Assembly (NCBI GenBank): GCA_021163815.1
Contig: JAGGTJ010000025.1
Coordinates: 5,821 to 69,820 of the forward strand
Direction of reading: 5' to 3'
DNA: 64,000 bases
Origin: Deltaproteobacteria bacterium
GTDB lineage: Bacteria; Desulfobacterota; DSM-4660; Desulfatiglandales; Desulfatiglandaceae
Part shown: positions 46,903-64,000 of the stretch, piece after piece
Layout of the letters: each line of letters opens with the position of its first letter
Numbering within the stretch: the stretch's first letter is position 1
Notes under the pieces: model-generated
Databases searched by the model: none
What the model was told of the DNA's origin: nothing
Seen by the model: the letters and a program-made list of their open reading frames with translations, nothing else
Program-made: the position numbers and the translations under genes

Positions 46903-46935
46903 GTTTTATCCATAATGTGATATTTTTTTGCTGGT

Positions 46936-47029
46936 TACCGTAAAAATAAACATACAAAACCGTATTAAAAACCAGTCTGTATTTTACTGTGTTTGGTCAG
47001 GATATTTTAAATCCGGCCATGCCGGTTTA
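46936..47029 (+). repeat. family A repeat, copy 8
   Basis: taccgtaaaaataaacatacaaaaccgtattaaaaaccagtctgtattttactgtgtttggtcaggatattttaaatccggccatgccggttta. Confidence 0.85.
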
Positions 47030-47121
47030 TCTGTGGATAGGTGGTGGATAGCGGTATTTTTATGAGTTCGTCAATATTATAACATTATAATTAAATGAAA
47101 TCCTGGAGGTTTTTAAGGTAA

Positions 47122-47385: not shown

Positions 47386-47762
47386 GCCCTTTCTGCAAAG
47401 GTCTATTTCTCACTGTGTTTTGTAGGTGGGAGGGTGTGCTGTCTGCTGTCTTTGAGATGGAATAGGCAGGACATCTTAATTGCGTTGTTCAGAATTGATT
47501 CGTGGATGGGTATTGATTAATTTCCGTGACTGTTGCCCGGGACAGCAGTTTTTCCTGATTTGCAGGATGTTTTGGTATTGCCAGGGCTGTATACTGTGCT
47601 TAATTTCTTTATTGAAAACTCTATAGTGTCCAAAATCTGCCTGGGATGGACATGAGTCAACTGTGGATAAAAGAGAAAGAAGGAGTCTTTCTGTAACCGG
47701 CTCCTTGTAAGCACCTTAAAATAAACACCTTTGTCAACTCGATATTGCATTGGAGGTAGAAT

Positions 47763-47993
47763 ATGAAAGATCTGATAGCGTACATAGCAAAGGCATTAGT
47801 GGATAAACCGGAAGAGGTGGTTGTAACAGAAGTGGAGGGGGAACAGACCTCTGTTATTGAATTAAAGGTGGCCAAGGATGATCTGGGGAAGGTGATTGGG
47901 AAACAGGGGCGTACTGCCCGTGCAATGAGAACTATCCTCAGCGCAGCATCCACAAAGCTGGGAAAACGTGCAGTCCTGGAAATTATAGAATAA
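47763..47993 (+). CDS. KH-domain RNA-binding protein (YlqC/UPF0109)
   Basis: 76 aa; [48 protein letters not shown]. Confidence 0.88.
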
Positions 47994-47995
47994 CA

Positions 47996-48164
47996 CCTAA
48001 ATCCTGCAAGCGTCGAGTTTGCCGAAGACCTGCCTGCAGCAGGCAGATACAAGGCGGCAAGGGTGCAGACGTACTACGATCAAATCCTTGCCACACAGAT
48101 TTGGTAAAATCGGCGCTTGTGGAGGGTAAACTGTTTTCAAAAATAGTTTATGCAGGTTTTAGGT
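47996..48164 (+). repeat. repeat family D, copy 1
   Basis: cctaaatcctgcaagcgtcgagtttgccgaagacctgcctgcagcaggcag...ggcaagggtgcagacgtactacgatcaaatccttgcc...ttttcaaaaatagtttatgcaggttttaggt; internal hairpins GGCAAGG/CCTTGCC and CTGCCTGC/GCAGGCAG. Confidence 0.8.
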
Positions 48165-48212
48165 AACACTTAACAGACAACAGCAAGAACAGAATTGTAA
48201 ACTGTTTATACC

Positions 48213-48743
48213 ATGTGTAAGTCCAATGATAATCTTGTTCTTATGGGAAGACTGTTGCATGCGCATGGTGTAAAGGGTCTCGCCTTGATCCACTCCTATG
48301 CCGATTCACCGGATGACTTTATTCAGGCGGGAAGTGTGTTTTTGAGAGGCAGGAACGGATGTTTAGATAAATATCAGGTTTCAGATATAAGGCCTCATAA
48401 AAGGCATTATTTAATGAAATTTGTCGGTCTTGATTCAAGGGAACAGGTAGACTCCCATAAGGGCGACGATATCCTGGTGGATAAAAATCTGCTTGTTCGC
48501 GGTGATGACGAGTTTTTCTGGTTTGAACTCATTGGCCTTGATGTCTATCTTGACTCTGGCGTTTGGCTTGGAAGGCTTGACAGAATTATTTCCACAAGGG
48601 CCAATGATATTTACATCGTCAAAAAAGGAAAGGCAGAGGTCTATATCCCCGCTACAGTCGATGTTGTCAGAAAGATTGATCTTGAGGAAAACAAGATGAT
48701 AGTTTCGGATGAGGGAGGTATCCTTGGCTTAAATGAGATTTGA
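48213..48743 (+). CDS. rimM: 16S rRNA processing protein RimM
   Basis: 176 aa; GRLLHAHGVKG, FFWFELIGLDVY; position between the KH gene and trmD. Confidence 0.88.
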   Translation: MCKSNDNLVLMGRLLHAHGVKGLALIHSYADSPDDFIQAGSVFLRGRNGCLDKYQVSDIRPHKRHYLMKFVGLDSREQVDSHKGDDILVDKNLLVRGDDEFFWFELIGLDVYLDSGVWLGRLDRIISTRANDIYIVKKGKAEVYIPATVDVVRKIDLEENKMIVSDEGGILGLNEI

Positions 48744-49491
48744 CATCCTCACCATTTTCCCTGGTCTGTTTTCATCCTTTTTAAGCCATGGTATCTTGGG
48801 ACGTTCCATAGAAAGGGGCCTGATTGATATCAGGCTTGTAAACATCCGTGACTTTACAGATGATCCTCACAGGAGTACGGATGACAAGCCTTACGGTGGA
48901 GGGGCAGGGATGGTAATGACGCCTGGGCCTGTTTTTCGTGCCCTTGATGCGGTTAAAAGGGAGAGTGAAAACTCCTCCGTGATTCTTTTAAGTCCCCAGG
49001 GTAAGAGATTTGATCAGTCATTGGCATGGAAACTGGCCGGGTTTGATCAGCTCATCCTTATATGTGGGCGTTATGAGGGCGTGGATGAACGCATCCGCCT
49101 TGGGTATGCAGACATGGAGATATCCATAGGTGACTATATCCTGAATGGCGGGGAAACAGGGGCCATGGTGATTATAGAGGCGGTAAGCCGTCTTGTACCC
49201 GGAGTCCTTGGCACAGACAAATCCAGCAAGGAGGATACCTTTGAAAACGGTCTCCTTAAGTACCCTCAGTATACAAGGCCAAAGGTATTTAATGGTATGC
49301 ATGTTCCGGATGTCCTCCTGTCAGGAGATCATGAACGGATAAGAATATGGCGCAGGACAGAATCCATTAAAAAGACCTGCAGAAACAGGCCTGACCTGAT
49401 TAAGAAAGCGGATCTGACGAAAGAAGACCTTCTCATTCTGAAACGCCAGAAAGACCTTGCATCTGTTTTGGATGCCGACAAAAACGACTGA
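48733..49491 (+). CDS. trmD: tRNA (guanine37-N1)-methyltransferase
   Basis: 252 aa; MRFDILTIFPGLF, DDKPYGGGAGMVM, ICGRYEGVDERI. Confidence 0.95.
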   Translation: MRFDILTIFPGLFSSFLSHGILGRSIERGLIDIRLVNIRDFTDDPHRSTDDKPYGGGAGMVMTPGPVFRALDAVKRESENSSVILLSPQGKRFDQSLAWKLAGFDQLILICGRYEGVDERIRLGYADMEISIGDYILNGGETGAMVIIEAVSRLVPGVLGTDKSSKEDTFENGLLKYPQYTRPKVFNGMHVPDVLLSGDHERIRIWRRTESIKKTCRNRPDLIKKADLTKEDLLILKRQKDLASVLDADKND

Positions 49492-49556
49492 TCCTGACAG
49501 CTTTTTATAGCAGGAGGTCCGGGGTTTCTTTGTTTTTTTACGGTAAAAGATAAATT

Positions 49557-50132
49557 ATGTCCATATATCTGGGGCTTGTGCATTATCCCGTTTACAACAG
49601 AAATCATGAAACAGTGGCATCGGCTGTCACAACAGTGGATATTCATGATATTGCACGGCTTTCCAGGGCATATGGTGTAAAAAGGTTTTTTGTTGTTACT
49701 CCCCTTACGGATCAGGCATTACTGGTAAAAAAGATAATAGCTCACTGGACCACCGGATACGGTTCCTCTTATAATATGCACAGAAAAGAGGCCCTTGAAC
49801 TGGTTTCAGTGGTTTCTTCTATATCTGAGGCCGTTGAACGGATAAAAAAAACAGAGGAATCCGCTCCCCTGCTTATAGCTACCAGTGCATCGAGACATAA
49901 AGGTAATCCCGTATCTTTCGAAGAGCTTGCAAGAATCATTTCTGTAGGGAGGACTGTTTTTTTGCTTTTCGGAACGGCATGGGGGCTTGAGGAAAACATC
50001 TTTTTAAATGCAGACTATGTATTGGAGCCTGTAACCTGTGCTACAGGATACAGGCATATATCTGTCAGGTCTGCAGTAGCGATAATTATGGATAGGTTAA
50101 TACAAAAATCTCAACATGAGACCTTTGCATAA
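49557..50132 (+). CDS. predicted SPOUT-type SAM-dependent RNA methyltransferase (Methyltrn_RNA_4-like)
   Basis: 191 aa; IYLGLVHYPVYNRNHETVASAVTTVDIHDIARLSRAYGVKRFFVVTP; typical neighbourhood between trmD and rplS. Confidence 0.55.
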   Translation: MSIYLGLVHYPVYNRNHETVASAVTTVDIHDIARLSRAYGVKRFFVVTPLTDQALLVKKIIAHWTTGYGSSYNMHRKEALELVSVVSSISEAVERIKKTEESAPLLIATSASRHKGNPVSFEELARIISVGRTVFLLFGTAWGLEENIFLNADYVLEPVTCATGYRHISVRSAVAIIMDRLIQKSQHETFA

Positions 50133-50156
50133 CGTCCTCTTTTGCCCAGTTTCTGT

Positions 50157-50255
50157 GTCAGGCTCAAATTTTAATCCTCAAAATATTTAATATATTCCTG
50201 CGGTTAAAATTTTTGCCTTCCTTGAACTTGAACAAAACTGAACATTTTGCAAAGG
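50157..50255 (-). repeat. repeat family E, copy 2
   Basis: See 45381-45472. Confidence 0.8.
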
Positions 50256-50299
50256 TTTTAACATATGAACCCTGATGGTTTTCAGGAGGAAGTGGTACT

Positions 50300-50647
50300 A
50301 TGAACAACATATTGGAAAAAATAGAAAAAGAACAGATGCGTATTGATATCCCCGACTTCAGGCCAGGGGATACGGTAAAGGTTCATGTGAAAATAAAGGA
50401 AGGGGGAAAGGAACGAATACAGGTCTTCAAGGGTGTTGTACTACGTAAAAGAAAAGGCACTACAGGCTCTACCTTTACTGTAAGAAAGGTTTCCTACGGG
50501 ATAGGTGTTGAAAGAATATTTCCCTTGCACTCACCGTCAATAGAGAAGATAGAGGTGGTAACAAGGGGCAAGGTCAGAAGGTCCAGGATTTACTATCTGA
50601 GAGGTCTTAAAGGCAAGGCCGCCCGTATTAAGGAACGAAGGTTTTAG
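50300..50647 (+). CDS. rplS: 50S ribosomal protein L19
   Basis: 115 aa; [33 protein letters not shown]. Confidence 0.95.
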
Positions 50648-50664
50648 GTGCCTTTACAGAAAAT

Positions 50665-51291
50665 ATGTTGTCTCTCCCGGATTCCCCGTTTTTTTATGAA
50701 GACCTTGCTTTTAAATCAGGTTATTCCCTGGTAGCAGGTGTTGATGAGGCAGGCCGAGGTTCGTTGGCAGGGCCGGTAGTTGCAGCAGCGGCAATTATAC
50801 CTGCAGAGCACAGGACTTGCGCATTTTGGGATAAGATCAAAGATTCCAAACAGATGTCTGCAATTGCAAGGCAAAAGGCCTTTGCATTTATTGTTGATAA
50901 TGGCATTCCTGTTTCCATTGGTGTTGTATCACGGACATACATTGATACCCATAACATACTCAAGGCCTCCCTCGAGGCAATGAGACGGGCGATTGTTTCT
51001 CTTTCCATGCAGCCTGATTTTATTCTTGTGGACGGTATGCAGGCAGTTCCCATATCAATACCGCAAAAATGTATTAAAAAGGGTGATCAGATAAGCAAAA
51101 GCATATCTGCTGCATCTGTACTGGCAAAGGTTTACAGGGACAGGATTATGGATGCCTATCATGAGATATATCCATGTTATCATTTTAACAGAAACAAGGG
51201 TTATGGAACACGCCAGCATATTGAGGCCTTAAAAACACACGGGCCTGCCCCCATACACCGGCTTACTTTTAAAGGAGTGGTTCAGGTTTGA
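50665..51291 (+). CDS. rnhB: ribonuclease HII
   Basis: 208 aa; VAGVDEAGRGSLAGPVVAAA, DSKQMS, ASVLAKVYRD. Confidence 0.93.
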   Translation: MLSLPDSPFFYEDLAFKSGYSLVAGVDEAGRGSLAGPVVAAAAIIPAEHRTCAFWDKIKDSKQMSAIARQKAFAFIVDNGIPVSIGVVSRTYIDTHNILKASLEAMRRAIVSLSMQPDFILVDGMQAVPISIPQKCIKKGDQISKSISAASVLAKVYRDRIMDAYHEIYPCYHFNRNKGYGTRQHIEALKTHGPAPIHRLTFKGVVQV

Positions 51292-51656
51292 CCAGCCAAA
51301 GAATTGAGCTTGGAAAATGGGGTGAAGATCTGGCCTTCAGGGAACTTAAAAGACTGGGTTATAAAAATATCATACGCAATTATCGTTGTTCTGTCGGCGA
51401 AGTTGATATGGTGGCCATGGATGCCGGCACACTGGTATTTATAGAGGTCAAGACAAGAAGAGGCGCCTGTGTTGCTTATGCCAAGGAGGCTGTAACGGGA
51501 AAGAAAAGAAGACAGCTTTCGAAACTTGCCTTGACATATATAAAAGACAGGGGACTTGGCAACATCTCCGCCAGGTTTGATGTGGTGGCAATAAGCATAG
51601 AAGGAGATAAGGTAAAGACAGAAATCGTAAAAAACGCATTTGATCTGGCCTTCTGA
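51288..51656 (+). CDS. yraN: YraN-family endonuclease (UPF0102)
   Basis: 122 aa; GKWGEDLAFRELKRLGYKNIIRNYRCSVGEVDMVAMDAGTLVFIEVKTRR; TTG start overlapping the rnhB stop. Confidence 0.85.
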   Translation: MTSQRIELGKWGEDLAFRELKRLGYKNIIRNYRCSVGEVDMVAMDAGTLVFIEVKTRRGACVAYAKEAVTGKKRRQLSKLALTYIKDRGLGNISARFDVVAISIEGDKVKTEIVKNAFDLAF

Positions 51657-51723
51657 ATGTCCTGACCACCGACGGTAAAATACAGCCTGGTTTTTAGCAC
51701 GGTTCTGTGTGTTTTTACGGTAT
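51653..51723 (-). repeat. family A repeat, copy 9 (partial)
   Basis: Reverse complement reads taccgtaaaaacacacagaaccgtgctaaaaaccaggctgtattttaccgtcggtggtcaggacatt. Confidence 0.8.
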
Positions 51724-51727
51724 AACC

Positions 51728-52618
51728 ATGACAGGGAAAAGACAGGATAATTGTGAAGAGAATTATGGAACCCTGTACGTTGTTGCAACCCCCATTGGCA
51801 ATTTAGACGATATAACCTTGCGTGCCTTAAATGTCCTTAGGCAGGTCCATAGTGTAGCAGCCGAAAATATTTCCCGTACCAGGGCCCTTTTGAATCATTA
51901 TGGTATCAGGACCAAACTTGCAAGTTACAGAGAACAGAATCATATCAAACAGGCATCCCTTATAATCAGGATACTGCAGTCCGGCGACAGTGTTGCCCTT
52001 GTAACAGATGCCGGCACACCTTGCATTTCTGATCCTGGCGCCTATCTTGTTGACCAGGCATACGAACACAGGATAGGAGTAGTTCCAATACCAGGGCCGT
52101 CTGCATTGACTGCAGCCCTGTCCGTCTCTGGCCTTATTTCAGACAGGTATATGTTTGTCGGGTTTTTGCCCCGCAAGTCCGGAAAAAGGCGCAATATCCT
52201 CAAGGAACTGTCTCAGGAGCAGGCCGCAATGGTTTTTTATGAGGCTCCTCATCGTCTGAATCTTATGCTCTCGGACATGCTAAGTATCTTTGGCAACCGC
52301 CAGGTGGCTGTTTTCAAGGAAATCACAAAGATATTTGAGGACGTAAAAAGAGGACCTTTGAATGTGGTTATTGAGCAACTGACTCCTGAGTGGATAAGAG
52401 GGGAATTCACCGTTGTTGTTGCCGGAAACGATATCATGTCCAAAGATCATGGTCAGGGGAAAGACATTCTGAAAACAGTTGATGCCAGGTTGTTGGAGAA
52501 TACAGGCATTAAAGACATTGCAACTGCTGTTGCAGGCGAAACAGGCCTTTCATACAGGCAGGCCTATAAGATATGCATAGAAAGAAAACTATGCAGGGAA
52601 AAAGACGGTTTTTCATGA
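51728..52618 (+). CDS. rsmI: 16S rRNA (cytidine1402-2'-O)-methyltransferase
   Basis: GTLYVVATPIGNLDDITLRALNVL, DAGTPCISDPG. ATG 51728 chosen because the GTG extension at 51707 lies inside a family A repeat. Confidence 0.9.
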   Translation: MTGKRQDNCEENYGTLYVVATPIGNLDDITLRALNVLRQVHSVAAENISRTRALLNHYGIRTKLASYREQNHIKQASLIIRILQSGDSVALVTDAGTPCISDPGAYLVDQAYEHRIGVVPIPGPSALTAALSVSGLISDRYMFVGFLPRKSGKRRNILKELSQEQAAMVFYEAPHRLNLMLSDMLSIFGNRQVAVFKEITKIFEDVKRGPLNVVIEQLTPEWIRGEFTVVVAGNDIMSKDHGQGKDILKTVDARLLENTGIKDIATAVAGETGLSYRQAYKICIERKLCREKDGFS

Positions 52619-52805
52619 TTGATGTCATGAGTGGCCTTAACATCTGTAAAAAAATCAGCAGGAATTTTACACTCCTTACGAATGCACCCAATGTATCAGT
52701 TCAACAAATGAGGCACTGACAGAAGATTTTTCCGTTTTGAGTTTCCTATCCGGTCTCTTGTGTTGTACCTGCTTTAAGGGGGATTTCCGTCAGTATTTTC
52801 TATAA

Positions 52806-52874
52806 CCCGACATAGCCGGATCCAAAATATTCAGCAGCCTGTTTTTCAGCACGGTTTTGTGTGTTTTTACGGTA
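52806..52874 (-). repeat. family A repeat, copy 10 (internal deletion)
   Basis: Reverse complement reads taccgtaaaaacacacaaaaccgtgctgaaaaacaggctgctgaatattttggatccggctatgtcgg. Confidence 0.8.
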
Positions 52875-52969
52875 AGGTAAATCCGGAAGAGATGGCGCCA
52901 TCCTGACAGTCATGTCAGGGGAACCCTTCTGCCGCTTTTTGTTGAGCTGTTACATGCCAGTTTTATTAT

Positions 52970-53239
52970 ATGGAAACTATAAAGAATTTCAGGATAAATA
53001 ATGAGTTGGGGATTCATGCCAGGACAGCGGCCATGATTGTGGAATTGGCCAAAAAGTTTAATTCCAAGATATACATAAAGAAAAATGACGAGGAAGTGGA
53101 TGGTAGAAGTATCCTGTCTATACTAACGCTTTCATGTCCCAAGGGTTCAGAAATACAGGTAAGGATTGTCGGGGATGATTCACAGGAATTTATGGATGCC
53201 TTGACAGAGCTGATCGAGGACGGATTTGGAGAGGACTGA
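52970..53239 (+). CDS. ptsH: phosphocarrier protein HPr
   Basis: 89 aa; active-site GIHARTAA and regulatory-Ser region DGRSILSILTL. Confidence 0.9.
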   Translation: METIKNFRINNELGIHARTAAMIVELAKKFNSKIYIKKNDEEVDGRSILSILTLSCPKGSEIQVRIVGDDSQEFMDALTELIEDGFGED

Positions 53240-53241
53240 TA

Positions 53242-55014
53242 ATGGCGCATGAAAAAAACACCCCCAAGACCGTATATGGAATTCCTGCTTCTCCGGGTAT
53301 AGTAATAGGCAAGGCTCATGTGGTTGACAGATCAAAGGTCAAGGTGATGTACCATTACCTTATAAGTGATGATCTGGTGGATCAGGAGGTTGCCCGTTTC
53401 AGGGAGGCAGTGGAAAAGGCAAAAGAGCAGCTTACAACCTTGAAAGACCGCCTGCCCGATTACGTAAAGGATCATGCGTTTATACTGGAAAGCCATCGCA
53501 TGATCCTGAAAGACAGCATGGTTTATAATGCTACCATAAAACACATTACTGAAGACAAGATAAATGCTGAGTGGGCGCTCAAGAAGACCTTGCTCGACAT
53601 CAAGAACGTATTCCAGGAGATTGATGATGAATACATCAGTAACAGGATCAGTGATGTGGGAAATGTTGTTGAAAGGATATTGAGAAACCTGTCAGGTAAA
53701 CAGCAGGAAAGTCTTCTGGATCTTAAAGAACGGGTAATCATTGTTGCCCATGACATCTCTCCTGAAGATGCTACAGAACTCAATACAAGCAAGGTAATGG
53801 GTTTTGTCTCTAATGTTGGTGCAAAAACCTCTCATACGGCTATTATAGCTCAGGCCCTGGGTTTGCCTGCTGTTATGGGCCTTGGCAATATTACGGATAT
53901 CGTAGAAGAAGGATGTCTGTTGATTGTCGATGGTAATACCGGCGAGGTTGTCATACAGCCTGATGATGATGCCATCATTTATTACCATGAAAGACAGATT
54001 CAAAGAGAAAGGTATCGCTCTTCCATAATCAGAACAAGTTATCTGCCTGCCAAAACCCTGGATGGTTACGAAATTGCTGTTATGGCCAATACGGAATTTG
54101 CAGGTGAAACAGAGGCGGTAAAAGAAAATGGGGGAGCAGGCATAGGCCTTTACAGAACTGAATTTCTTTATCTTAAAAGCAACGGGTTCCCTTCTGAAGA
54201 GGAGCTGTTCAATGATTATAAACAGGTGGCTGAAAAAATAGCTCCTGACCCTGTTATTATAAGGACATTGGATCTTGGCGGAGACAAGTTCCTGTCATAT
54301 TCCAATAAAAAGGAGGCGAACCCTGCCCTTGGGCTTAGGGCCATACGGTTATCGCTGAAAAATCCCCAGGTATTCAAGGTGCAGATCAGGGCCATTCTGC
54401 GTGCAAGTGCATACGGTAATGTCTGGCTGATGTTTCCCATGATATCAGGGCTTAGTGAAATCCAGGCGGCAAACAGAATACTGACGGAGGTCAAAAAAGA
54501 TCTCGATGATGCGGGGATGGACTATAAGAGGGATATAAGGGTCGGAATTATGATCGAAATCCCGTCTGCCGTTGCCATAGCAGACATACTTGCTCATCAA
54601 ATAGATTTTTTCAGCATCGGAACCAACGACCTGATCCAGTATGCCCTTGCTGTTGACAGGACAAATGAGGATGTTGCCTATCTGTATAAGCCTTTCCATC
54701 CTGCAATTTTAAGGATGATAAGGCAGGTAATAACAGCGGCCGACAAGGCCGGTATAGAGGTTTCGTTATGCGGGGCCATGGCAGGGGAACCGTGCTGTGT
54801 TCCCATCCTTATTGGCGCTGGTATGAAAAGACTAAGTGTAAATATACAGTCTGTTCCCCTTATAAAAAAGATCATACGTTCGATTTCCCTTAAAGATGCA
54901 GAGAGCTGCTTTGAAGATATTATGAAGCTGACAACGGCAAATCAGGTTGAGGCATACATAAAGGCTTTTATGAAGGACCTGTTGCCGGAACTGGGAGAAA
55001 ACGCATTTATATGA
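53242..55014 (+). CDS. ptsI: phosphoenolpyruvate--protein phosphotransferase (Enzyme I)
   Basis: 590 aa; GAKTSHTAIIAQALGLPAV, GLYRTEFLY, FFSIGTNDLIQY. Confidence 0.93.
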   Translation: MAHEKNTPKTVYGIPASPGIVIGKAHVVDRSKVKVMYHYLISDDLVDQEVARFREAVEKAKEQLTTLKDRLPDYVKDHAFILESHRMILKDSMVYNATIKHITEDKINAEWALKKTLLDIKNVFQEIDDEYISNRISDVGNVVERILRNLSGKQQESLLDLKERVIIVAHDISPEDATELNTSKVMGFVSNVGAKTSHTAIIAQALGLPAVMGLGNITDIVEEGCLLIVDGNTGEVVIQPDDDAIIYYHERQIQRERYRSSIIRTSYLPAKTLDGYEIAVMANTEFAGETEAVKENGGAGIGLYRTEFLYLKSNGFPSEEELFNDYKQVAEKIAPDPVIIRTLDLGGDKFLSYSNKKEANPALGLRAIRLSLKNPQVFKVQIRAILRASAYGNVWLMFPMISGLSEIQAANRILTEVKKDLDDAGMDYKRDIRVGIMIEIPSAVAIADILAHQIDFFSIGTNDLIQYALAVDRTNEDVAYLYKPFHPAILRMIRQVITAADKAGIEVSLCGAMAGEPCCVPILIGAGMKRLSVNIQSVPLIKKIIRSISLKDAESCFEDIMKLTTANQVEAYIKAFMKDLLPELGENAFI

Positions 55015-55466
55015 ACAAAAAGATTGTATGCTCGAACAAAAAGGCGAAATATGACTATTTCCTCGATGATTTTTATGAAGCAGGGATGGTGTTGCTGGGA
55101 CCGGAGGTTAAATCCCTAAGGTTGGGGCAGGCAAATCTTACAGACAGCTATGCAAAGATCAAAAAGGGCGAGGTTTTTTTGTACAATATGCATATCAAGC
55201 CCTATGTAAATGCCCGGCATATAAACCTGGATCCTGTAAGGCCAAGAAAACTGCTTTTGAACAAGAGGGAGATAAAACGCCTTATTGGGAAAACAGAGGG
55301 AAAGGGCTATACCCTTATACCAACAAAGGTTTATTTTTTAAACGGTTGGGCAAAGGTGGAAATTGCCTTGGCAAGAGGCAAACGCAAGTACGACAAGCGA
55401 CAGGCCCTTAAAGAAAAAGAGATGAAAAAGGATATGAAAGAGGCCCAAAAAAGGTATAAGTATTGA
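55011..55466 (+). CDS. smpB: SsrA-binding protein SmpB
   Basis: 151 aa; NKKAKYDYFLDDFYEAGMVLLGPEVKSLR, RPRKLLLNKREI. Confidence 0.93.
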   Translation: MNKKIVCSNKKAKYDYFLDDFYEAGMVLLGPEVKSLRLGQANLTDSYAKIKKGEVFLYNMHIKPYVNARHINLDPVRPRKLLLNKREIKRLIGKTEGKGYTLIPTKVYFLNGWAKVEIALARGKRKYDKRQALKEKEMKKDMKEAQKRYKY

Positions 55467-55549
55467 CATTTTCATCGTAAATGATTATTTTATAGCAGTA
55501 AATTGCCCCGATTGTCTGTTTTTATCATCTTTGATGGTAATAACTGTAA

Positions 55550-55903
55550 GGGGGCGAAACGGTTTCGACGGAGATAGTTGAAGTTCAGATTGCATACCGA
55601 GGTTCCATCATCTCGTAAAACAGGTGGATATAAACACAATCGCAGACGATTATTCGTATGCTCTGGCCGCTTAGGCCAGCGTCCTTTTAGTTTTTACCTG
55701 CGGAACTAAAAAGGGCGTCGATCAGCAGGGTAGCTTGGCCGTATTGCCTGTGTGACGGTCAGGTGAACTTTATCACAGGATAGTCCGTTGTTGTAGGTGC
55801 TCGATACCTACGACAGGGATGAAACAATAAATATCGAGCTAAGTATGTAGATGTCTGAATGGAATGTTTCCGGACGGGGGTTCGACTCCCCCCGCCTCCA
55901 CCA
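55550..55903 (+). ncRNA. ssrA: tmRNA (ssrA), tag ORF ADDYSYALAA-stop at 55642-55674
   Basis: 5' GGGGGCGAAACGGTTTCGACGG pairs with 3' CGCCTCC-A-CCA. T-arm-like GGACGGGGGTTCGACTCCCCCCGCC. Resume codon GCA and in-frame GCA GAC GAT TAT TCG TAT GCT CTG GCC GCT TAG. Directly follows smpB. Confidence 0.93.
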
Positions 55904-55918
55904 TTTGAAAAAAGACAA

Positions 55919-55961
55919 CCCGTCTCTCGGCATATCTTTTCCGGGAAGACGGTTTTTTTTA
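55919..55961 (+). terminator. rho-independent terminator of ssrA
   Basis: cccgtctctcgg-catatctttt-ccgggaagacgg hairpin followed by T8. Confidence 0.7.
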
Positions 55962-56295
55962 TTTTCCCCCCCCTTGTTTTCAGATGGCTTGCGCCCATTT
56001 CACATCTTTTTAAAGTACCTCTTTGCTCCTCGTTTCTTCTCCACCTTTCTTCCTCTGTTTGTCCCCAGATTCGCTGGCATTGACAATCACCCCACGATCC
56101 TGCCCCTACACACCCGGTGATATATTCGGGCGGGATAAGTCTTTACCGGCATGTGTTTGTGCCGGGTTATGCCCGGGAGAGCATGGTTTCGGCATGGCTC
56201 TATATTGGAGACACGGCAGTCAGGCGTGGGACGAAGCTCATCCAGTCCGGTATTTGGTCGGAATAAACACCGATCACCATAATTTAGAAAAACAT

Positions 56296-56324
56296 TTGAC
56301 AGCAACTGTCACTAACTGTATATT
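56296..56324 (+). promoter_or_regulatory. sigma-70 promoter with overlapping palindromic operator candidate
   Basis: TTGACA (56296-56301), 17-nt spacer, TATATT (56319-56324). A perfect inverted repeat TGACAG-caa-CTGTCA (56297-56311) overlaps the -35. The site is 62 nt upstream of the HTH gene. Confidence 0.6.
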
Positions 56325-56385
56325 AGATGGGTGTTATGAGGTATCGTGCGAAAACTTTTGCCTTGCGGTCAGAGAGGTATACCTG

Positions 56386-56592
56386 ATGGATGAAAAACCA
56401 GGCGCTGTCATGACCATTGAAGAGCTATCCGCCTATCTGAAGATTCCGAAGTCAACGCTCTATAAGCTCGTTCGGGAAGGCAAGGTCCCTTCCCAGAAGG
56501 TGGGCCGGCACTGGCGTTTCCGGAAGGAGGCCATCGATCGATGGTTGGACGAGACGCAAGCCGAAGAGCCGGATACAAAGGGAGAACAGTAA
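56386..56592 (+). CDS. excisionase-family (MerR-like) helix-turn-helix DNA-binding protein
   Basis: 68 aa from an ATG with a GAGAGG RBS; MTIEELSAYLKIPKSTLYKLVREGKVPSQKVGRHWRFRKEAIDRWL is the classic excisionase-type HTH signature. Confidence 0.75.
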   Translation: MDEKPGAVMTIEELSAYLKIPKSTLYKLVREGKVPSQKVGRHWRFRKEAIDRWLDETQAEEPDTKGEQ

Positions 56593-57068
56593 TGGCTGAG
56601 CCTCTCGCTGATCAGGTCATGCGGAAAATCAAACAGGCTGCCGAGCTTTACCATAGGCTTATGCTGGTCGTAGCTCCGGCAGGAGCGGGAAAAACTACTG
56701 CGCTCACATACGTGAAAGAACGCATAGGCGCACCACTGGTCAACGTCAACCTGGAGCTGTCACGCCGCATGCTTGAACTAACCGAGCGCCAGAGGGCGTT
56801 ACAGCTTCCCCGACTGTTAAGGGAGATTGTAGATGATGCTGCCAGTGAAGTGGTGTTGCTCGACAATTTAGAGATTTTATTTGACGTATCCCTGCAGCAA
56901 GACCCTCTTCGGCTTCTTCAGGGACTTTCTCGTAACAAAACGGTGGTTGCTGCCTGGAACGGTTCCATTGACAAAGACCACATGACCTATGCCGTACCGG
57001 ATCATCCTGAGTTCCGCCGCTATCTGGTCCGCGATTTTCTGGTGGCAAGTCCGGAGGTAACGACATGA
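56592..57068 (+). CDS. brxF: BrxF-like small P-loop ATPase (BREX type 3)
   Basis: 158 aa; TAATG-coupled to the HTH gene; Walker [11 protein letters not shown], Walker [12 protein letters not shown], then [22 protein letters not shown]. Assignment is from remembered family features and gene context. Confidence 0.65.
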
Positions 57069-57102
57069 AGCTGATAGAAGAGATTACAAGGGGGCATACG
57101 CG

Positions 57103-60100
57103 ATGAAATACGGTGACCTGATTCAGTTTGAACCCATTGAGTCCGTGGTCCAACTGCGGGATGCCATTGATGCAACTGCCGCCCGGCAGCTTGTCGAGAC
57201 CTATGTCATTTCCAAAGAGATGGCAGAGAAGCTGGTGGGTTTGGTTATTCCCCAGCTGCAGTTTGAGCAGCCCACCGACAACAAAGGACTTCTGGTGGTT
57301 GGTAATTACGGCACTGGTAAATCCCACCTCATGTCGGTGATCTCCTCTCTTGCGGAACATCCCGACCTTACCGCCAGTCTCAGCAATGCCGACGTAGCGA
57401 ATGCTGCTCAAAAAATCAGCGGCCGGTTCAAGGTGGTCCGTACCGAGATCGGTGCCACCACCATGTCCCTGCGGGACATTCTTGTTGCCGAACTGGAAGA
57501 GCATCTGGCGGCGATGGGTGTGAGCTACAGCTTTCCATCCGCCGACCAGGTATCCAACAACAAACGTTCCTTCGAGGAGATGATGGCCGCCTTCCACCAG
57601 GAATTTCCGGACCATGGTCTACTCCTCGTGGTGGATGAGCTTCTCGACTATCTGCGCACCCGTAAAGACCAGGAGCTTATTCTGGACCTGAACTTCCTCC
57701 GTGAGATCGGCGAAGTTTGCAAGGACCTGCGTTTCCGCTTCATGGCCGGTGTCCAGGAAGCCATTTTCGACAGTCCCCGGTTCTCCTTTGTGGCCGACAG
57801 TATCCGCCGGGTGAAGGACCGCTTCGAGCAGATTCTCATCGCTCGCAAAGACGTCAAGTTCGTGGTGGCCGAGCGATTGCTCAAGAAAACCGGTGAGCAG
57901 CAGGCCAAAATACGCGAATACCTTACGCCCTTCGGCAAGTTCTACGGCCATATGAACGAGCGCATGGGCGAGTTCGTCCGTCTCTTCCCAGTGCATCCCG
58001 ATTACGTCGACACCTTTGAGAGGGTAACCGCGGTTGAAAAGCGCGAAGTGCTCAAGACCCTGTCCCTGGCCATGAAGAAGATGCTCGATCAGGATCTGCC
58101 AGACGACCGGCCGGGGCTCATCGCCTATGACACCTACTGGACTAATCTCCGAGAGAATCCATCCTTCCGGGCCGTGCCAGACATTAAGGCGGTCATCGAC
58201 TGCAGCCAGGTACTGGAGTCCCGCATACAGCAGGCCTTCACGCGTCCGGCTTACAGGCCCATGACGATCAGACTTATCCATGCCCTGTCTGTACATCGGC
58301 TTACTACAGGTGACATTTATGCCCCTCTGGGCGCGACAGCTGAGGAGCTTCGTGACGGGCTTTGCCTCTATCAACCGGGCATCGAGGAACTGGGAGGTGA
58401 TCCGGCCGACGACCTGCTATCCCAGGTAGAGACCGTCCTGCGCGAAATCCACAAAACGGTCAGCGGACAATTTATCTCTTCGAATCCGGACAGCCGGCAA
58501 TTCTATCTGGACCTGAAAAAAATCGACGACTTCGACGCGTTGATCGAAAAACGCGCCGAAAGCCTCGATTCCTCCCAACTGGACCGCTACTACTACGAGG
58601 CCCTGAAACGGGTCATGGAATGTACTGACCAGACTTATGTCACCGGCTACAAGATCTGGCAGCACGAGCTGGAATGGTTGGAGCGCAAGGCTGCACGCCA
58701 GGGATACCTTTTCTTTGGCGCGCCCAACGAGCGATCCACTGCTGTACCGCCGCGGGACTTCTACCTCTATTTCATTCAACCCTTCGATCCACCGCACTTC
58801 AAGGACGAGAAGAAGCCCGACGAGCTGTTCCTCAGGCTTCGCCTAAGTGCGGAGTACGATGTGCGAAGTGCGCAAGAGAAGAACGCACCACGCACGGCGC
58901 ACCACGCACTCGATTTCAGGGAAACCCTGAAATCGTTTGCCGCAGCCCTGGACCTGGCATCCACCTCATCTGGGCAGGCAAAAGCAACCTACGAATCCAA
59001 GTCATCCCATTTTCTGCGGGACCTGGTGCAGTGGCTGCAAAAGCACATGACAGATGCATTCGAGGTCACCTATCAGGGGCGCACAAAGTCACTTACCGAG
59101 TGGGCCAAGGGTAAGTCGATCCGTGAGCTTTCCGGCATCAGCTCCCATGAACGCATCAATTTTCGTGACCTGATTAACACAATTGCCGGGATCTGCCTGG
59201 GAGCTCACTTCCAGGATCAGGCACCTGAGTATCCCTTCTTCTCGGTCCTCATCACCGGGACCAACCGGGAACAGGCCGCCCAGGACGCCTTGCGCGCCAT
59301 TGCCGGTCAGAACCGAACCAAGCAGGCCACCGCTGTATTGGATGCGCTGGAACTACTCGACGGTGAACGGCTTGATCCATACCAGTCGAAGTACGCCAAG
59401 CACATCATCGGCCTGCTCAAGAAGAAAGGGCATGGCCAAGTGGTCAATCGCTCCGAGCTAATCCAGGACGACAAGGGTGTGGAATACATGGATAAAGACC
59501 GGTATCGGCTGGAGCCCGAGTGGGTGATTGTTGTCCTGGCCGCGCTGGTCTACTCCGGTGATCTGGTGCTCGCCATCCCGGGCAAGAAGTACGACGCCAC
59601 CGGCCTTCCACAACTGGCCGGGATCGGCATAGATGAACTGACGCAGTTCAACCATATCGAACGACCCAAGGACTGGAACCTGCCAGCTCTGAAAGCGGTA
59701 TTCGAACTGCTCGGTCTCACACCAGGCATGGCGCAACTGGTCACCCAGGGCAAGGACGAACCGGTCCAGCAGTTGCAAAAGGCCATCTCAGAATCGGTAG
59801 AGAAGCTGGTGCTCCTGCAGCAAACCCTACAAAGCGGACTACTTTTCTGGGGTCGGAACTTACTGACTGAGGAAGAAGCTCAAAAGCTCCGTACCCGGCT
59901 CGACGAGACCAAGACTTTCCTGGAGTCGCTCCAGGCCTATACCTCGCCTGGCAAGCTCAAAAACTTCCGCTACGACGCCCAGGAGGTGACATCCCATCGG
60001 GACGGAATCAATTCCCTTACAGAAATCGAATCTCTCCAGGAATTGGTAGCCGATCTCGGTTCCACTGCCTCCTTCCTGTCCACCGCCGAGGCGGTACTGC

Positions 60101-60888
60101 CCGCGGAACACGAGTGGGTAGATGAGATGAAGAAGGTGCGTGACGAGGTACTCATCCAACTTGGCGATCCAGACAAACGCAGTGCAGCCACCTTCCGCCA
60201 GCAGACTCAGCGCAAGCTCGCAGATCTCAAGAAGACCTACGTGCAGACCTACCTGGCATTGCATGCCAAGGCTCGGCTGGGCGTGAACGAAGACAAGCGC
60301 AAGACCGAACTCATGGGTGACGAACGGCTCAAGGTGTTGCAAAAGCTATCCACTATCGAACTGATGCCGCGTCAGCATCTGACCGACTTTCAAAACCGTC
60401 TTGCCGGTTTGAAGAGCTGCTTCGCGCTCACCGAGCAGGAATTGGATGCAACGCCTGTGTGCCCGCACTGCAACTACAAACCCAGCGCGGAACCACCGGC
60501 TGTACCGGCGGGCACTGTGTTGGATGATCTCGACGAGGAGCTGGACAAGCTGGTGGAGAACTGGACTCAGACATTGCTGACCAACCTGGAGGACCCGACC
60601 ACCAAGGGCAACCTGGACCTGCTCAAGCCCGAGCCCAAGAAGCTCGTGAACGGCTTCATCAAAAAGCGGGCCCTGCCGGACGAAATCAATCAGGATTTCA
60701 TCCATGCCCTTGGCGAGGTGCTTTCCGGGCTCCAGAAAGTTCCGGTCAAGATCGCAGATCTGCGTGCGGCCCTGCTCTCCGGCGGCTCACCGGTAACACC
60801 GGCGGAGATGAAGAAACGGTTCGAGGAATATCTGGACGAACTCACCAAGGGCAAGGAGCCCGGCAAGGTGAGGATTGTGCTGGAGTGA
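57103..60888 (+). CDS. brxC: BrxC/PglY-like large P-loop ATPase (BREX)
   Basis: 1261 aa; N-terminus [19 protein letters not shown], Walker [15 protein letters not shown], Walker [14 protein letters not shown]-terminal CPHCNYKP zinc-ribbon-like element; size and position fit BrxC. Confidence 0.7.
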
Positions 60889-60892
60889 ACAG

Positions 60893-62785
60893 ATGACGCA
60901 GGATGAACTGATAGAACTGCTCAACGCTCATGAATGGCGTGATGTCGAATTCAAGGAAGCCCAGCGTGAGGTTCCACGCAGTGCTTACGAGACTGTTTCT
61001 GCGTTTGCAAATACTGAAGGCGGTCATCTTGTTTTTGGTGTCAGGAAAAATGGACAAGACTTCGAGATGGTCGGAGTCCTTGATGTCGATAAAGTTCAAA
61101 ATGATTTTCTGACTACGCTACGGCAGCCTGACAAGTTGAGTGTCATAGTGAATGTCCGGGAAGAATTATACAAACAAGGAGAGTCAGATCTGCTCGTCTT
61201 CTATGTGCCTGAAGCCCACCGTTCGGAAAAGCCCGTTTTCCTTAACAGAGATATCCGCCGTTCATATGTTCGTAGTGGCGGCTGCGATGTCCGCTGCTCG
61301 GACAATGAGCGAAACCGATTTCTTATGGATGCGGCTGCCGAGCGTTATGACGGCCAGCCTGTCGATCTCGACCTGAATACGGCATTCGATCCGGAGAGCA
61401 TTAATTGGTATCGAGCGGTCTATGAGGGAAGGCCAGGGAACCGTTCTCACGCAACACTATCCGACACGGATTTCCTCAAGGAAATGGGTTTGCTTGTTGA
61501 GCAACACGGCCAGATATCGCCATCGCGCGCAGCGATCTTTCTCTTCGGATCAAATGCGACCCTCCGGCAACTCCTTCCACGGCCGGTAGTGGACTGCCAG
61601 CGGTTCTCGTTGCCTCGCGACAGGGCGGATGCCGGTGAGCGATGGATTGACCGTCTCGTTCTCGACGAAAATCTCATTCGCTCCTGGCAATCCCTTATCG
61701 ATTGGTACCAAAGATTCGCGGAGCGGCCGTTCCGGGTTGACCCGGCATCCTTGCAACGAGACGACGCGCCACCGGACTACCGCGCCTTTCGTGAATCAAT
61801 GGTCAACCTACTCATCCATCAGGATTATTCTGATCATTCCCGGAAAGCGGAGATCCGCCACTATACCGACCAGACCGTTTTCTGGAATCCCGGCGATGCC
61901 TTCGCTACTGATACAGACCTGCTTGAACCCGGCGAAAAGGAGGTGCGCAATCCCAGGATCGTGACCGCTTTCCGGCGCATCGGACTGAGCGAGAACGCTG
62001 GATGGGGATTGCGTGATGTCTTCCGCAACTGGCAGCAGTTGGGCCATGTTCCGCCCACTATCACCAACAACAAGGGGCGTAAGTGCTTTGAACTTGTCCT
62101 CAAAAAAGAAGAACTCCTGTCGGAACATCAGGTTCTTTTCCAGGCAAGCCTCGGTGTGCAACTCACCGACGAACAAGCAAGGGTGTTTGCCTTTGCCTGC
62201 CGGGAAAAGGCGATCACGCTTCCGCAGATCAAGGCCGTGACGGGTCTTGCCGGACCGGATGCCGTGGAGCTTGCCGATACCCTGGTCACAAAAGTCCTCT
62301 TCAGGACCGTCGAGGACGGCAGAAAGTATGCCCTGGCGGAGCACCTGGAGGAACGGTTCCGTCGAACTGACCAAGCCACTGACCAACCAGATGCGCAGGC
62401 TGGGGACTTGATCACTGCACAAGTTCAGCCCGAGAAGCCCGACTTGTCCACTGCACAAGTCGAAGACCAAGCGGGAGACTTGTCCACTGGACAAGTTCAT
62501 ACCTTGACAGAACTTTCCGAAACACACTGGAAAATCATAGAGTTATGCGATGTGCCCCGTCGCCTGGTCGAGATTCTGGAAGCTCTTGGCGTGACCAACC
62601 GGGGTTATTTCAAGGAACACCATCTCGATCCGCTGATTCAGTCCGGGATTGTGGCGATGACCAACCCGAAGAACCCCCGGGCATCGAACCAGAAATATGT
62701 GATTACCGAAGCGGGAGCCCAACTCAAAGCGCGCCGCATGTCTGAGGAAACCGACCGAAGCGAGGACGAGAATGGCGAAGTCTAA
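60893..62785 (+). CDS. AlbA_2 (Schlafen-like) / HATPase_c_4 / winged-helix putative DNA-binding protein
   Basis: 630 aa (ATG 60893, stop 62783-62785). N-terminus EWRDVEFKEAQREVPRSAYETVSAFANTEGGHLVFGV (AlbA_2). Middle NLLIHQDYSDHS...RNPRIVTAFRRIGLSENAGWGL (RecG-like HATPase_c_4). DLxTAQV 12-aa repeats. C-terminal wHTH-like tail KEHHLDPLIQSGIVAMTNPKNPRASNQKYVITEAG. Confidence 0.7.
   Translation: MTQDELIELLNAHEWRDVEFKEAQREVPRSAYETVSAFANTEGGHLVFGVRKNGQDFEMVGVLDVDKVQNDFLTTLRQPDKLSVIVNVREELYKQGESDLLVFYVPEAHRSEKPVFLNRDIRRSYVRSGGCDVRCSDNERNRFLMDAAAERYDGQPVDLDLNTAFDPESINWYRAVYEGRPGNRSHATLSDTDFLKEMGLLVEQHGQISPSRAAIFLFGSNATLRQLLPRPVVDCQRFSLPRDRADAGERWIDRLVLDENLIRSWQSLIDWYQRFAERPFRVDPASLQRDDAPPDYRAFRESMVNLLIHQDYSDHSRKAEIRHYTDQTVFWNPGDAFATDTDLLEPGEKEVRNPRIVTAFRRIGLSENAGWGLRDVFRNWQQLGHVPPTITNNKGRKCFELVLKKEELLSEHQVLFQASLGVQLTDEQARVFAFACREKAITLPQIKAVTGLAGPDAVELADTLVTKVLFRTVEDGRKYALAEHLEERFRRTDQATDQPDAQAGDLITAQVQPEKPDLSTAQVEDQAGDLSTGQVHTLTELSETHWKIIELCDVPRRLVEILEALGVTNRGYFKEHHLDPLIQSGIVAMTNPKNPRASNQKYVITEAGAQLKARRMSEETDRSEDENGEV
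62405..62496 (+). repeat. three in-frame 36-nt tandem repeats, each with an internal palindrome
   Basis: gacttgatcactgcacaagt (62405), gacttgtccactgcacaagt (62441), gacttgtccactggacaagt (62477). Each contains ACTTGT-N7-ACAAGT and encodes DLITAQV / DLSTAQV / DLSTGQV. Confidence 0.85.
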
Positions 62786-64000
62786 GAAAGATGCCGAACA
62801 GCAGCAGTTGTTCAAGACCAGGCTGGTTCCCGGAAAAACGGGATCAGGCAAGCTTTTTGATGAAGAGATAGTCATGGACGACGGCCCGGTAGAGTGTCTC
62901 GGTATGACCTTCGAGAACGACGAAAAACGCCGGGAGTATTTCCTGGAGAAGCTTCGCGAGAAACTCAAGGACCCGGAGTTTCGCAAGATCGAGGGGTTCC
63001 CGATTGGCGAGGATGAGGACATCCTGGCCCTGTCTGATCCGCCGTACTACACCGCCTGCCCGAATCCGTTTATCGAGGATTTCATTAAGCAGTACGGCAA
63101 GCCATATGACCCGGAGACGGACGATTACCGGCGGGAACCGTTTGCTGCGGATGTGAGTGAGGGGAAATACGATCCACTATATAAAATCCATGCATATCCA
63201 ACAAAGGTCCCATTTAGAGCCATTATCAGATACCTCCTTCATTTCACGCAGCCAGGTGATCTGGTTTTCGATGGATTTGCAGGTACAGGTATGACTGGAG
63301 TTGCTGCTGAGATGTGTGGGAATCCTGAAGAAGTTAGCTCCATTGTGGATCCCAGCGATAATCTTCTCAAAGGCCAAAGGTATGCCATACTTTGTGATTT
63401 ATCCACAAATGCTACGCACATTGCGTCCAACTACGTAAGGCACATAGATGCCAGTGATTTCAAAAGACATTTCTCAGCTTATATTGCGAGATGTGAGGCC
63501 AAGATTAAGTGGCTATATCAAACACAAGATCCATCAACAGGACAAATTGGCATCATTAACTATGTTGTATGGAGCGAAGTGTTTTTCTGTGAACACTGTT
63601 CCCAAGAATATTCATATTGGGACTCTGCTGTCACTTACAAACCAGGAGATACTATCGGAAAAGTAGAGAATAAGCAGGTATGTCCTCACTGCGGCGCTGA
63701 AGCTACTAGGCGAACCGTTGAAAATGCAGTTGAAACTGTTTTTGATCCGTTTACTGGCACTACTATTGCTCAGAAGAAACATGTGCCTGTACTTATCAAC
63801 TATAAGATCGGTCAATCGCGACGGGAAAAGATTCCCGATGACTTCGACCTCACACTTTTGAAAAAAATCTCTGATACGCTACCAGAGATAACTGATTCAA
63901 TAAAAACGGCACCTTTGATGCTCAAAGAAGGTGTTGATAAATGGGGTGATCAACAGCGCGAGTATCATCTTGGGATCACTCATGCTCATCATTTTTTTTC
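62772..64000 (+). CDS. pglXI: PglXI-like beta-class N6/N4 DNA methyltransferase, N-terminal about 409 aa (continues beyond the window)
   Basis: Hand translation from ATG 62772 is open to the window end: MAKSKKDAEQQQLF...LALSDPPYYTACPNPF (motif IV)...YPTKVPFRAIIRYLLHFTQPGDLVFDGFAGTGMTG (motif I)...CEHC...CPHCG. It overlaps the preceding gene by 14 nt. It is absent from the ORF track because no stop lies in the window. Confidence 0.65.
   Translation, partial: MAKSKKDAEQQQLFKTRLVPGKTGSGKLFDEEIVMDDGPVECLGMTFENDEKRREYFLEKLREKLKDPEFRKIEGFPIGEDEDILALSDPPYYTACPNPFIEDFIKQYGKPYDPETDDYRREPFAADVSEGKYDPLYKIHAYPTKVPFRAIIRYLLHFTQPGDLVFDGFAGTGMTGVAAEMCGNPEEVSSIVDPSDNLLKGQRYAILCDLSTNATHIASNYVRHIDASDFKRHFSAYIARCEAKIKWLYQTQDPSTGQIGIINYVVWSEVFFCEHCSQEYSYWDSAVTYKPGDTIGKVENKQVCPHCGAEATRRTVENAVETVFDPFTGTTIAQKKHVPVLINYKIGQSRREKIPDDFDLTLLKKISDTLPEITDSIKTAPLMLKEGVDKWGDQQREYHLGITHAHHFF

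Follow-up and report, generated by a model that had tools for sequence, protein, structure and literature searches.

A type 3 BREX operon with nested defence genes at the strain-variable flank of ssrA

Genes of the operon and their composition

The 64,000-nucleotide (nt) stretch of contig JAGGTJ010000025.1 analysed here (the window), from a bacterium of the Desulfatiglandaceae, contains towards its right end the transfer-messenger RNA (tmRNA) gene ssrA and, directly downstream of it, the first genes of an operon belonging to the type 3 bacteriophage exclusion (BREX-3) systems. A reading of the window from sequence only had proposed the order helix-turn-helix (HTH) protein, BrxF, BrxC, AlbA_2 protein and PglXI, and this order is matched by Pfam, PADLOC and NCBIfam (Table 1). 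BrxF scores 268.7 bits with its PADLOC profile over positions 1-158 of 158 and 195.3 bits with NCBIfam BREX_3_BrxF (cutoff 50), and BrxC scores 2084.5 bits with PADLOC PDLC02482 and 1906 bits with Pfam DUF6079, both over the full length, so the 158-amino acid (aa) and 1261-aa proteins are complete BrxF and BrxC and not members of unrelated families. The generic NCBIfam BREX_BrxC model gives BrxC only 50 bits (cutoff 400), which places it in the DUF6079 subtype. The 409-aa fragment of PglXI matches PADLOC PglXI with 487 bits over profile positions 5-383 of 919. The HTH and brxF genes overlap by TAATG, and the AlbA_2 and pglXI genes by 14 nt. The tight coupling described from the sequence is thus correct in both overlaps, while the gap between brxC and the AlbA_2 gene is 4 nt and not 5.

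To follow the operon past the window we used metagenome contigs of the same strain (among them L084 and L088), which overlap at 99.9% nt identity and give, together with the window, a composite of 71,621 nt. They were reached by exact-protein look-up with the AlbA_2 protein and PtsI; the same look-up with BrxC returned no record. The composite completes pglXI and continues with a pair of YopA-like genes, a cyclase of the type found in cyclic oligonucleotide-based antiphage signalling systems (CBASS), a SLATT effector with two transmembrane (TM) segments, a full brxHII and the start of pglZ, which bears out the prediction that brxHII and pglZ would be found beyond 64,000. BrxHII carries the Pfam domains SNF2-rel_dom and Helicase_C. 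The 77-aa fragment of PglZ scores 137.6 bits with PADLOC PglZ (1-77 of 666) and 96.9 bits with NCBIfam BREX_PglZ_3 (1-73 of 642), the latter short of the cutoff of 250, which applies to the whole protein and not to such a fragment. The cyclase and SLATT genes are adjacent and co-oriented, as in type I CBASS, and the cyclase stays under the cutoffs of the NCBIfam CBASS cyclase models (96.9 versus 200). For the YopA-like pair our local copies of Pfam, NCBIfam and PADLOC gave no match; the pair also follows pglXI in locus L078 (72% and 81% at the aa level).

All genes of the operon are co-oriented and tightly coupled in the composite, in the order promoter/operator, HTH, brxF, brxC, [AlbA_2/Schlafen-histidine kinase (HK)-winged HTH (wHTH)], pglXI, [YopA-like pair, CBASS cyclase, SLATT], brxHII, pglZ, so that five of the six BREX-3 core genes are present in canonical order. 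Metagenomes scanned with the PglZ fragment gave 80 loci, of which none is of the same strain and the best has 99% aa identity, and a homologue search with it gave short partial proteins only, at most 95% identical. L091, whose PglZ N-terminus is the most similar (99%), is a different locus, in which brxA is followed by an IS607-type pair (L091:12997-14833), made up of a serine recombinase (62 bits with Pfam Resolvase) together with a protein recognised by eye as TnpB-like, and then by ordinary metabolic genes; the BREX-3 operon stops at this point with no integrase.

The composition of the region changes just past ssrA, from ~56.2 kb. The host backbone (1-55549) has a GC content of 0.426 and the BREX core genes 0.53-0.57; counted in 500-nt windows, the GC content is 0.50-0.59 over ~56.25-63.0 kb, with a dip around 60.75-61.5 kb (0.49-0.50), and drops to 0.41-0.43 over 63.25-64.0 kb. 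The rise and the profile matches agree with the proposal of a high-GC, BREX type 3-like island directly 3' of ssrA. The dispersed repeats were likewise said to end before the island, and every copy of the nine direct-repeat families in the window does lie left of 52,874. A Logan contig (L083) begins at 52,847 inside one such copy, showing that the backbone repeats break assemblies. The dispersed repeats of families D1-D3 are 40-84 nt long and may be akin to repetitive extragenic palindromes or to miniature inverted-repeat transposable elements.

Table 1. Features of the window and of the composite (positions beyond 64,000 are those of the composite; the last two rows refer to related loci)
Feature	Position	Strand	Description
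Dispersed repeat copies	616-706, 22064-22154, 24695-24785, 42496-42586, 45113-45180, 46947-47030		host backbone
Further dispersed repeat copies	1638-1677, 17280-17319, 51683-51722, 52835-52874		host backbone
ssrA (tmRNA)	55550-55903	+	ARAGORN; Rfam RF00023, 193.5 bits; tag ADDYSYALAA
Leader A	55904-56163	+	ssrA terminator hairpin and ~200 nt
Promoter	56296-56324	+	sigma-70-type TTGACA-17-TATATT; 11/12 consensus matches
Inverted repeat	56297-56311		TGACAG-CAA-CTGTCA; overlaps -35 hexamer; further AACTGT half-site after it; candidate operator
HTH gene	56386-56592	+	68 aa; HTH_17/excisionase-family DNA-binding, MAD1-like; first gene of operon
brxF	56592-57068	+	158 aa; P-loop protein, Walker A GAGKT
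brxC	57103-60888	+	1261 aa; DUF6079-type BREX ATPase
Accessory gene, cargo slot 1	60893-62785	+	630 aa; SLFN_AlbA_2 (Schlafen), HATPase_c_4, Fic-like_C winged HTH (Pfam)
pglXI, part in window	62772-64000	+	codons 1-409 of 949; end of gene at 65,621 (L084)
pglXI, composite	62772-65621		949 aa; PADLOC PglXI 1380.6 bits, positions 5-918/919 (L084)
Low-GC cassette in pglXI	63130 to ~64,750	+	~1.6 kb, aa ~125-660; predicted methyltransferase core with embedded target-recognition insert
YopA_M-like gene	65629-66465 (L084:7070-7906)		precomputed Pfam match only
YopA_C-like gene	66562-66981 (L084:8003-8422)		precomputed Pfam match only
CBASS-type cyclase	67070-67954		PADLOC Cyclase PDLC00814, 402 bits; Pfam SMODS, 109.6 bits
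SLATT_4 two-TM effector	67972-68583		PADLOC 2TM effector PDLC00696, 180 bits; Pfam SLATT_4, 137 bits
brxHII	68583-71396		937 aa (P0001 on L088); PADLOC PDLC02500, 1576.4 bits, 3-931/933
pglZ, start	from 71389		first 77 codons; overlaps brxHII by 8 nt
wHTH-only gap ORFs	L014:13758-14198; L016 ~13770-14129; L019 ~13736-14134; L061 ~13736-14155		brxC-pglXI gap of related loci
Post-brxA module	L183:9188-16413; L185:15592-22814; L110:12774-19250		co-oriented with BREX-3 operon

The ssrA site in conspecific strains

A search with SmpB, together with exact look-ups, yielded 14 further contigs spanning ssrA, for which we measured the identity of the core flank against positions 45,000-55,903 of the window. 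Conspecifics with core flanks 97-99.9% identical carry other defence systems at ssrA and not the genes of the window. For instance, in L174 (core flank 99.86%) ssrA is followed by BrxA, BrxB and BrxC of a type 1 BREX (BREX-1) and a HEC-02A-like ATPase, in L169 (97.19%) by HsdS and HsdM and then a patatin/cyclase/E2 CBASS, that is, type I restriction-modification (R-M) and type II CBASS, and in L173 (97.4-97.6%) by an HTH gene and a type I HsdR. Including the BREX-3 operon, we thus see four alternative contents at the site, all of them defence. Other contigs end sooner: L177 (97.4-97.6%) 87 nt past ssrA, and L175 and L176 (97.2-97.5%) 2-5 nt past it. A sister species, with core flanks of 87.3%, is represented by L179, where HsdS precedes a truncated open reading frame (ORF) and the contig stops 1.44 kb past ssrA, and by L180, which stops after ~100 nt; the stretch after ssrA in L179 is 90.6% nt identical to that of L169. 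In L174 the ATPase (L174:7569-7973, an AAA protein, 114 bits) lies directly after the brxC of BREX-1, so that this type 1 locus too has an accessory gene in that position; a 209-aa ORF of the same contig has no NCBIfam or PADLOC match.

All variants diverge at the CCA of the tmRNA, and at least eight contigs break within ~100 nt of its 3' end. The CCA is followed by one of two unrelated leaders, type A in the window and L174, and type B in L169, L173, L177 and the sister species (L179-L181). Leader A (260 nt) is only 89.6% identical between the window and L174, next to a core flank of 99.86%, and the two sequences part at 56,163. The window aligns with other BREX-3 loci from 56,159 onwards at the earliest, so that two independent comparisons put the cargo junction at ~56,160, and the leader, being far more diverged than the adjoining core, belongs with the incoming element.

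A similar picture emerges from related BREX-3 loci elsewhere. A co-oriented tRNA or tmRNA gene lies at most ~1 kb upstream of the operon in 9 of the 60 loci scanned, with an intervening space too small for an integrase, and in L025 it is again a tmRNA gene. Considering all tRNA and tmRNA genes found, 13 of 19 fall within the 7.5% of the sequence that immediately precedes the operon (P = 4e-11).

The profile matches, the downstream genes and the variable flank support a BREX type 3 defence island beside ssrA, as first proposed, and we consider it probable, at roughly 0.85, that the locus is a type 3 BREX anti-phage operon, horizontally acquired, at a strain-variable defence site that starts exactly at the 3' end of ssrA. 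Several points weigh against this. Gene calls and hidden Markov models (HMMs) found no integrase in 55,904-71,621, the 15.7 kb of island covered, the distal end lying beyond, nor does the 3' end of ssrA (GGTTCGACTCCCCCCGCCTCCACCA; 25-mer, at most 6 mismatches) recur up to 71,621, the far junction again lying beyond; the absence of an integrase or a duplicated attachment (att) site noted for the window thus extends over the composite. There is no Phage_integrase among the top Pfam families of 72 ORFs in the ~7 kb after brxA of 20 related loci, and the three closest BrxHII relatives are without an integrase within 10 kb. The contigs spanning ssrA show the left flank of the site only, none of them extending to the right one. 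No brxA was seen in the same-strain sequence, which stops at 71,621 in pglZ; in the three closest relatives (BrxHII 92-96% identical) brxA (PADLOC ~350 bits) overlaps pglZ by 4 nt. Moreover, type 3 BREX itself has been little characterised experimentally (PMC12839542).

Two further searches bear on mobility. A regular expression for box II of tyrosine recombinases gave two matches, of which the one inspected is a spurious high-GC shadow ORF. Repeats of tRNA 3' ends, sought in the nine tRNA-adjacent loci, were found in L040 only. There the last 30 nt of a tRNA-Lys gene (8456-8531) recur with 2 mismatches at 9175-9204, 644 nt downstream and just before brxF, an att-like duplicate which suggests serial integrations at the tRNA site beside the BREX-3 operon.

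Most likely the locus is one of a family of islands which would integrate site-specifically at the 3' end of ssrA, each bringing its own terminator and leader, and the recombinase of this island would sit beyond the 15.7 kb seen. Alternatively, the flank of ssrA could be a recombination hotspot without dedicated mobility genes, where cargos are exchanged by homologous recombination between ssrA (with the leader) as left arm and a conserved core gene as right arm, after entry by transformation, transduction or conjugation. We regard this as unlikely, if well worth weighing. It would account for the 15.7 kb without integrase or att repeat and for the lack of integrases after brxA in the 20 related loci and in the three closest relatives, the leaders of 205-260 nt common to islands with different cargo are possible homology arms, and ssrA is also among the core flanks that define the Pseudomonas aeruginosa hotspot cDHS2 (PMC10250203). 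However, each pairwise comparison splits exactly at the CCA of the tmRNA and not at varied points, the contrast between leader A and the core indicates that the leader travels with the cargo like the terminus of an island, and the location of BREX-3 loci at 3' ends of many different tRNA genes across many phyla is the signature of targeting by tyrosine integrases.

Candidate controller, cargo slots and predicted methyltransferase cassette

We scanned genomes for related operons and found 80 loci with BrxC 72-90% identical at the aa level, assigned to many bacterial phyla; the nt identity over brxF-brxC is also 72-90%. The GC content of brxC (0.47-0.62, standard deviation (sd) 0.032) is steadier than that of the upstream host flank (0.38-0.70, sd 0.067) in the 46 loci compared, the module thus keeping its own composition and appearing as a high-GC island here and a low-GC one in GC-rich hosts. 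One locus, L017 (JAOQII010000084.1), is assigned to the archaeon Candidatus Syntrophoarchaeum, with a BrxC 83% identical followed by an AlbA_2 gene (50% aa), and reflects either inter-domain transfer or mis-binning. Within brxC, an ATPase gene otherwise very conserved, there is a variable patch of ~100 nt (58838-58939) where nt homology is gone in almost all of the 80 loci, and on either side of which the gene aligns at 75-90%.

The order HTH-brxF-brxC-pglXI-brxHII is constant in these loci and two intergenic positions vary, from -42 to 7067 nt between brxC and pglXI (slot 1, 61 loci) and from 71 to 6378 nt between pglXI and brxHII (slot 2, 28 loci). Nearly all ORFs in the gaps are co-oriented with the operon (70/72 in slot 1 and 46/47 in slot 2). 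The commonest domains in slot 1 are AlbA_2 and HATPase_c_4, each in 20 of the 72 ORFs, and other occupants are YhcG/DUF1016 nucleases, AAA_15/21 ATPases and Fic proteins. Slot 2 holds mainly AAA_15/21 ATPases, DUF3696 and GmrSD proteins, and once (L024) the cyclase/SLATT pair, which also recurs in L114. The AlbA_2 gene of the window is found in the same slot of L009 (86% aa), L027 (76%) and L034 (74%). Described initially as an inserted gene, it does lie between brxC and pglXI, and is the commonest type of occupant of a recurrent slot rather than a one-off insertion. Short brxC-pglXI gaps (~400 nt) encode only a homologue of the C-terminal 120-150 aa of the AlbA_2 protein, the winged HTH, at 33-76% identity (Table 1), which may be what a deletion left behind or else an adaptor domain in its own right.

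A third module occurs right after brxA in L183, L185 and L110, consisting of a methyltransferase-like protein of 726-728 aa and a 1229-1429-aa AAA_11/AAA_12 helicase with weak PADLOC matches to DpdJ and MkoA. An ADP-ribosylglycohydrolase follows the helicase in L183 and L185.

The first protein of the operon had been called an excisionase-type HTH, and its family matches agree with this (Pfam HTH_17, 66.7 bits; TIGR01764, 64.7 bits; the MADS MAD1 model (MADS1), 63 bits with a cutoff of 80). A role as the excisionase of the island fits less well, as the gene is a conserved first gene with a conserved promoter and operator of its own. The protein is 66-93% identical in ~26 loci, its gene directly abutting brxF. 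A single copy of the motif TTGACANNAACTNNCANTAACTGT is found in the window, and none in shuffled sequences. When up to 2 mismatches are allowed, 24 related loci out of the 80 have one copy each. It invariably lies on the coding strand, ~296 nt ahead of brxF and ~90 nt ahead of the HTH gene, and all of these loci have an HTH homologue (at least 66% identity). As the protein and the motif occur together in these 24 loci and only 5 of them adjoin a tRNA gene, we rejected the reading of the protein as simply an island excisionase. C proteins of R-M systems and BrxR of type 1 BREX are small HTH controllers of their own operons, and from its conservation with the operator the protein more likely is a controller of this kind. 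BrxR is among the works cited in PMC12839542 (its reference 16). As with C proteins and BrxR, a small HTH gene comes first in the operon and a palindrome overlaps its own promoter; the fold differs, being HTH_17/excisionase-MerR-like here, Xre-type in C proteins and WYL-type in BrxR.

Taken a step further, this BREX-3 clade might be a self-contained, self-regulated cassette moving from phylum to phylum and settling time and again at tRNA and tmRNA 3' ends with no recombinase beside it, its backbone serving as a scaffold, a reading to which we give little credence at present. If true, the route of integration would be new for defence islands, for instance by a trans-acting integrase, and the excisionase-family HTH could be a directionality or targeting factor. 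The slots and the pglXI cassette described below would then be re-assorted by recombination between near-identical backbone genes of unrelated hosts.

The large compositional contrast (+0.14) might instead mean that the junction of ssrA and BREX-3 is a chimera of metagenome assembly or binning, with a high-GC segment from another organism, and BREX-3 genes are indeed so similar across phyla (75-85% at the nt level) that assemblies fragment, with contig breaks inside brxC. We consider this highly improbable, as three independent assemblies, the window, the ENA scaffold L081 (to 57,232) and the JGI contig L082 (to 56,266), cross the junction at 99.9% identity, the remainder is tiled by the overlapping contigs L084-L088, and leader A is common to the conspecific BREX-1 contig.

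In pglXI the GC content at third codon positions drops from 0.77 to 0.37 at codons ~121-130 and climbs from 0.33 to 0.6-0.8 near codon 660. On L084 the overall GC content is 0.40-0.43 at ~63,160-64,660, 0.55-0.57 in the last third of pglXI and 0.55-0.60 in brxHII, so that a cassette of 0.414 stands between flanks of 0.55-0.57. The high-GC range first given as 56,100-63,170 is therefore right in its left rise, and the end of the island at 63,170 that it implies is wrong, GC rising again at ~64,750 within pglXI. That host-composition DNA resumes at ~63,170 as the right end of the island, as the backbone-like 0.41-0.43 at 63.25-64.0 kb might suggest, is refuted by the reading frame of pglXI, which continues uninterrupted across the low-GC stretch, by the return to 0.55-0.57 at ~64,750 inside this 949-aa gene, and by BREX genes that go on as far as 71,621 or further.

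Aligning 74 full-length PglXI proteins shows conserved parts at aa 31-180 and 570-949 and a hypervariable part at aa 181-540; none of the 73 others exceeds 41% identity to the central part of our protein, compared to up to 93-94% for its termini. Its motifs are FDGFAGTG at aa 166 (motif I), CEHC at aa 273, CPHC at aa 304 and DPPF at aa 528 (motif IV). The BrxXI methyltransferase has an embedded recognition insert with a 4-Cys finger (PMC12839542), and by these motifs the low-GC stretch is predicted to be the methyltransferase core with a BrxXI-type recognition insert and 4-Cys finger. This core-plus-recognition cassette may have been swapped in by recombination within the conserved termini, and its sharp composition boundaries suggest swapping of specificity. 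A further point against our reading of the locus arises here: across the family the middle of pglXI is often lower in GC (mean difference -0.06, sd 0.048), with the window, at -0.149, the second most extreme of 74, and part of the contrast may thus be intrinsic to the domain and not the result of a recent swap.

Established knowledge of BREX leads us to expect that PglXI would methylate a host motif picked by its embedded recognition insert, and that BrxC, BrxF, BrxHII and PglZ would stop phage DNA that is not methylated from being replicated. Back-up layers of abortive infection could be provided by the Schlafen-type nuclease and the cyclase/pore pair nested in the operon. The HTH protein would bind the inverted repeat over its own -35 hexamer and thus control expression of the operon, and a swap of the pglXI cassette would alter the specificity and leave the interfaces with the remaining BREX proteins as they are.

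Comparison with known systems

Type 3 BREX was reportedly defined by Goldfarb et al. in 2015, with the genes brxF, brxC, pglXI (brxXI), brxHII, pglZ and brxA. The locus provides several handles on this little-studied type, namely a promoter and operator with a candidate controller, two cargo slots, and a core/recognition cassette in the methyltransferase. It is also an example of layered immunity, with BREX-3, a Schlafen-type effector and a minimal CBASS in one co-oriented string, at an ssrA site where near-identical strains carry wholly different defence systems. Compared with the published domain analysis of type 3 BREX (PMC12839542), PglXI has the same alpha-class order of motif I, insert with 4-Cys finger and motif IV (DPPF), and the conserved C-terminal region of ~290 aa. 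The upstream HTH_17 gene with its conserved operator is different, the words excisionase, MerR and promoter being absent from the text of that paper, as are the pairs of CBASS cyclase/SLATT and YopA-like genes nested between pglXI and brxHII; CBASS, SMODS and SLATT do not occur in the text.

Auxiliary effectors composed of a Schlafen RNase, a minimal histidine kinase plus a wHTH occur at BREX and BREX-related loci in at least 1017 taxa, and nuclease effectors nested in BREX loci, including the Schlafen-HK-wHTH type, have already been reported (PMC12839542). The accessory gene in slot 1, assigned here from its domains, resembles them in its string of AlbA_2, HATPase_c_4 and winged HTH and in its place between BREX core genes. 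Prokaryotic Schlafen tRNases have been described as well (bioRxiv 10.1101/2025.07.24.666596); the experimentally characterised RorSlfn5 differs in its sensor domain. Similarly, the cyclase lies next to a co-oriented 2TM/SLATT effector as in type I CBASS, and unlike that system the pair is not free-standing and lies within a BREX operon.

The core defence hotspot cDHS2 of P. aeruginosa is flanked by ssrA (PMC10250203), a paper that cites Williams 2002 for genomic islands linked to tRNA and tmRNA genes. As there, a core flank with ssrA is followed by alternative defence systems across strains of one species. The site described here is in another phylum, all four of its contents are defence, no mobility genes were seen, and it is seen from its left flank only. 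The literature thus already has hotspots flanked by ssrA, effectors nested in BREX loci and the embedded recognition insert, and current views are not overturned. What we find beyond this literature is the conserved pair of HTH protein and operator, the nested minimal CBASS and the sharply bounded pglXI cassette, none of which would surprise a specialist.

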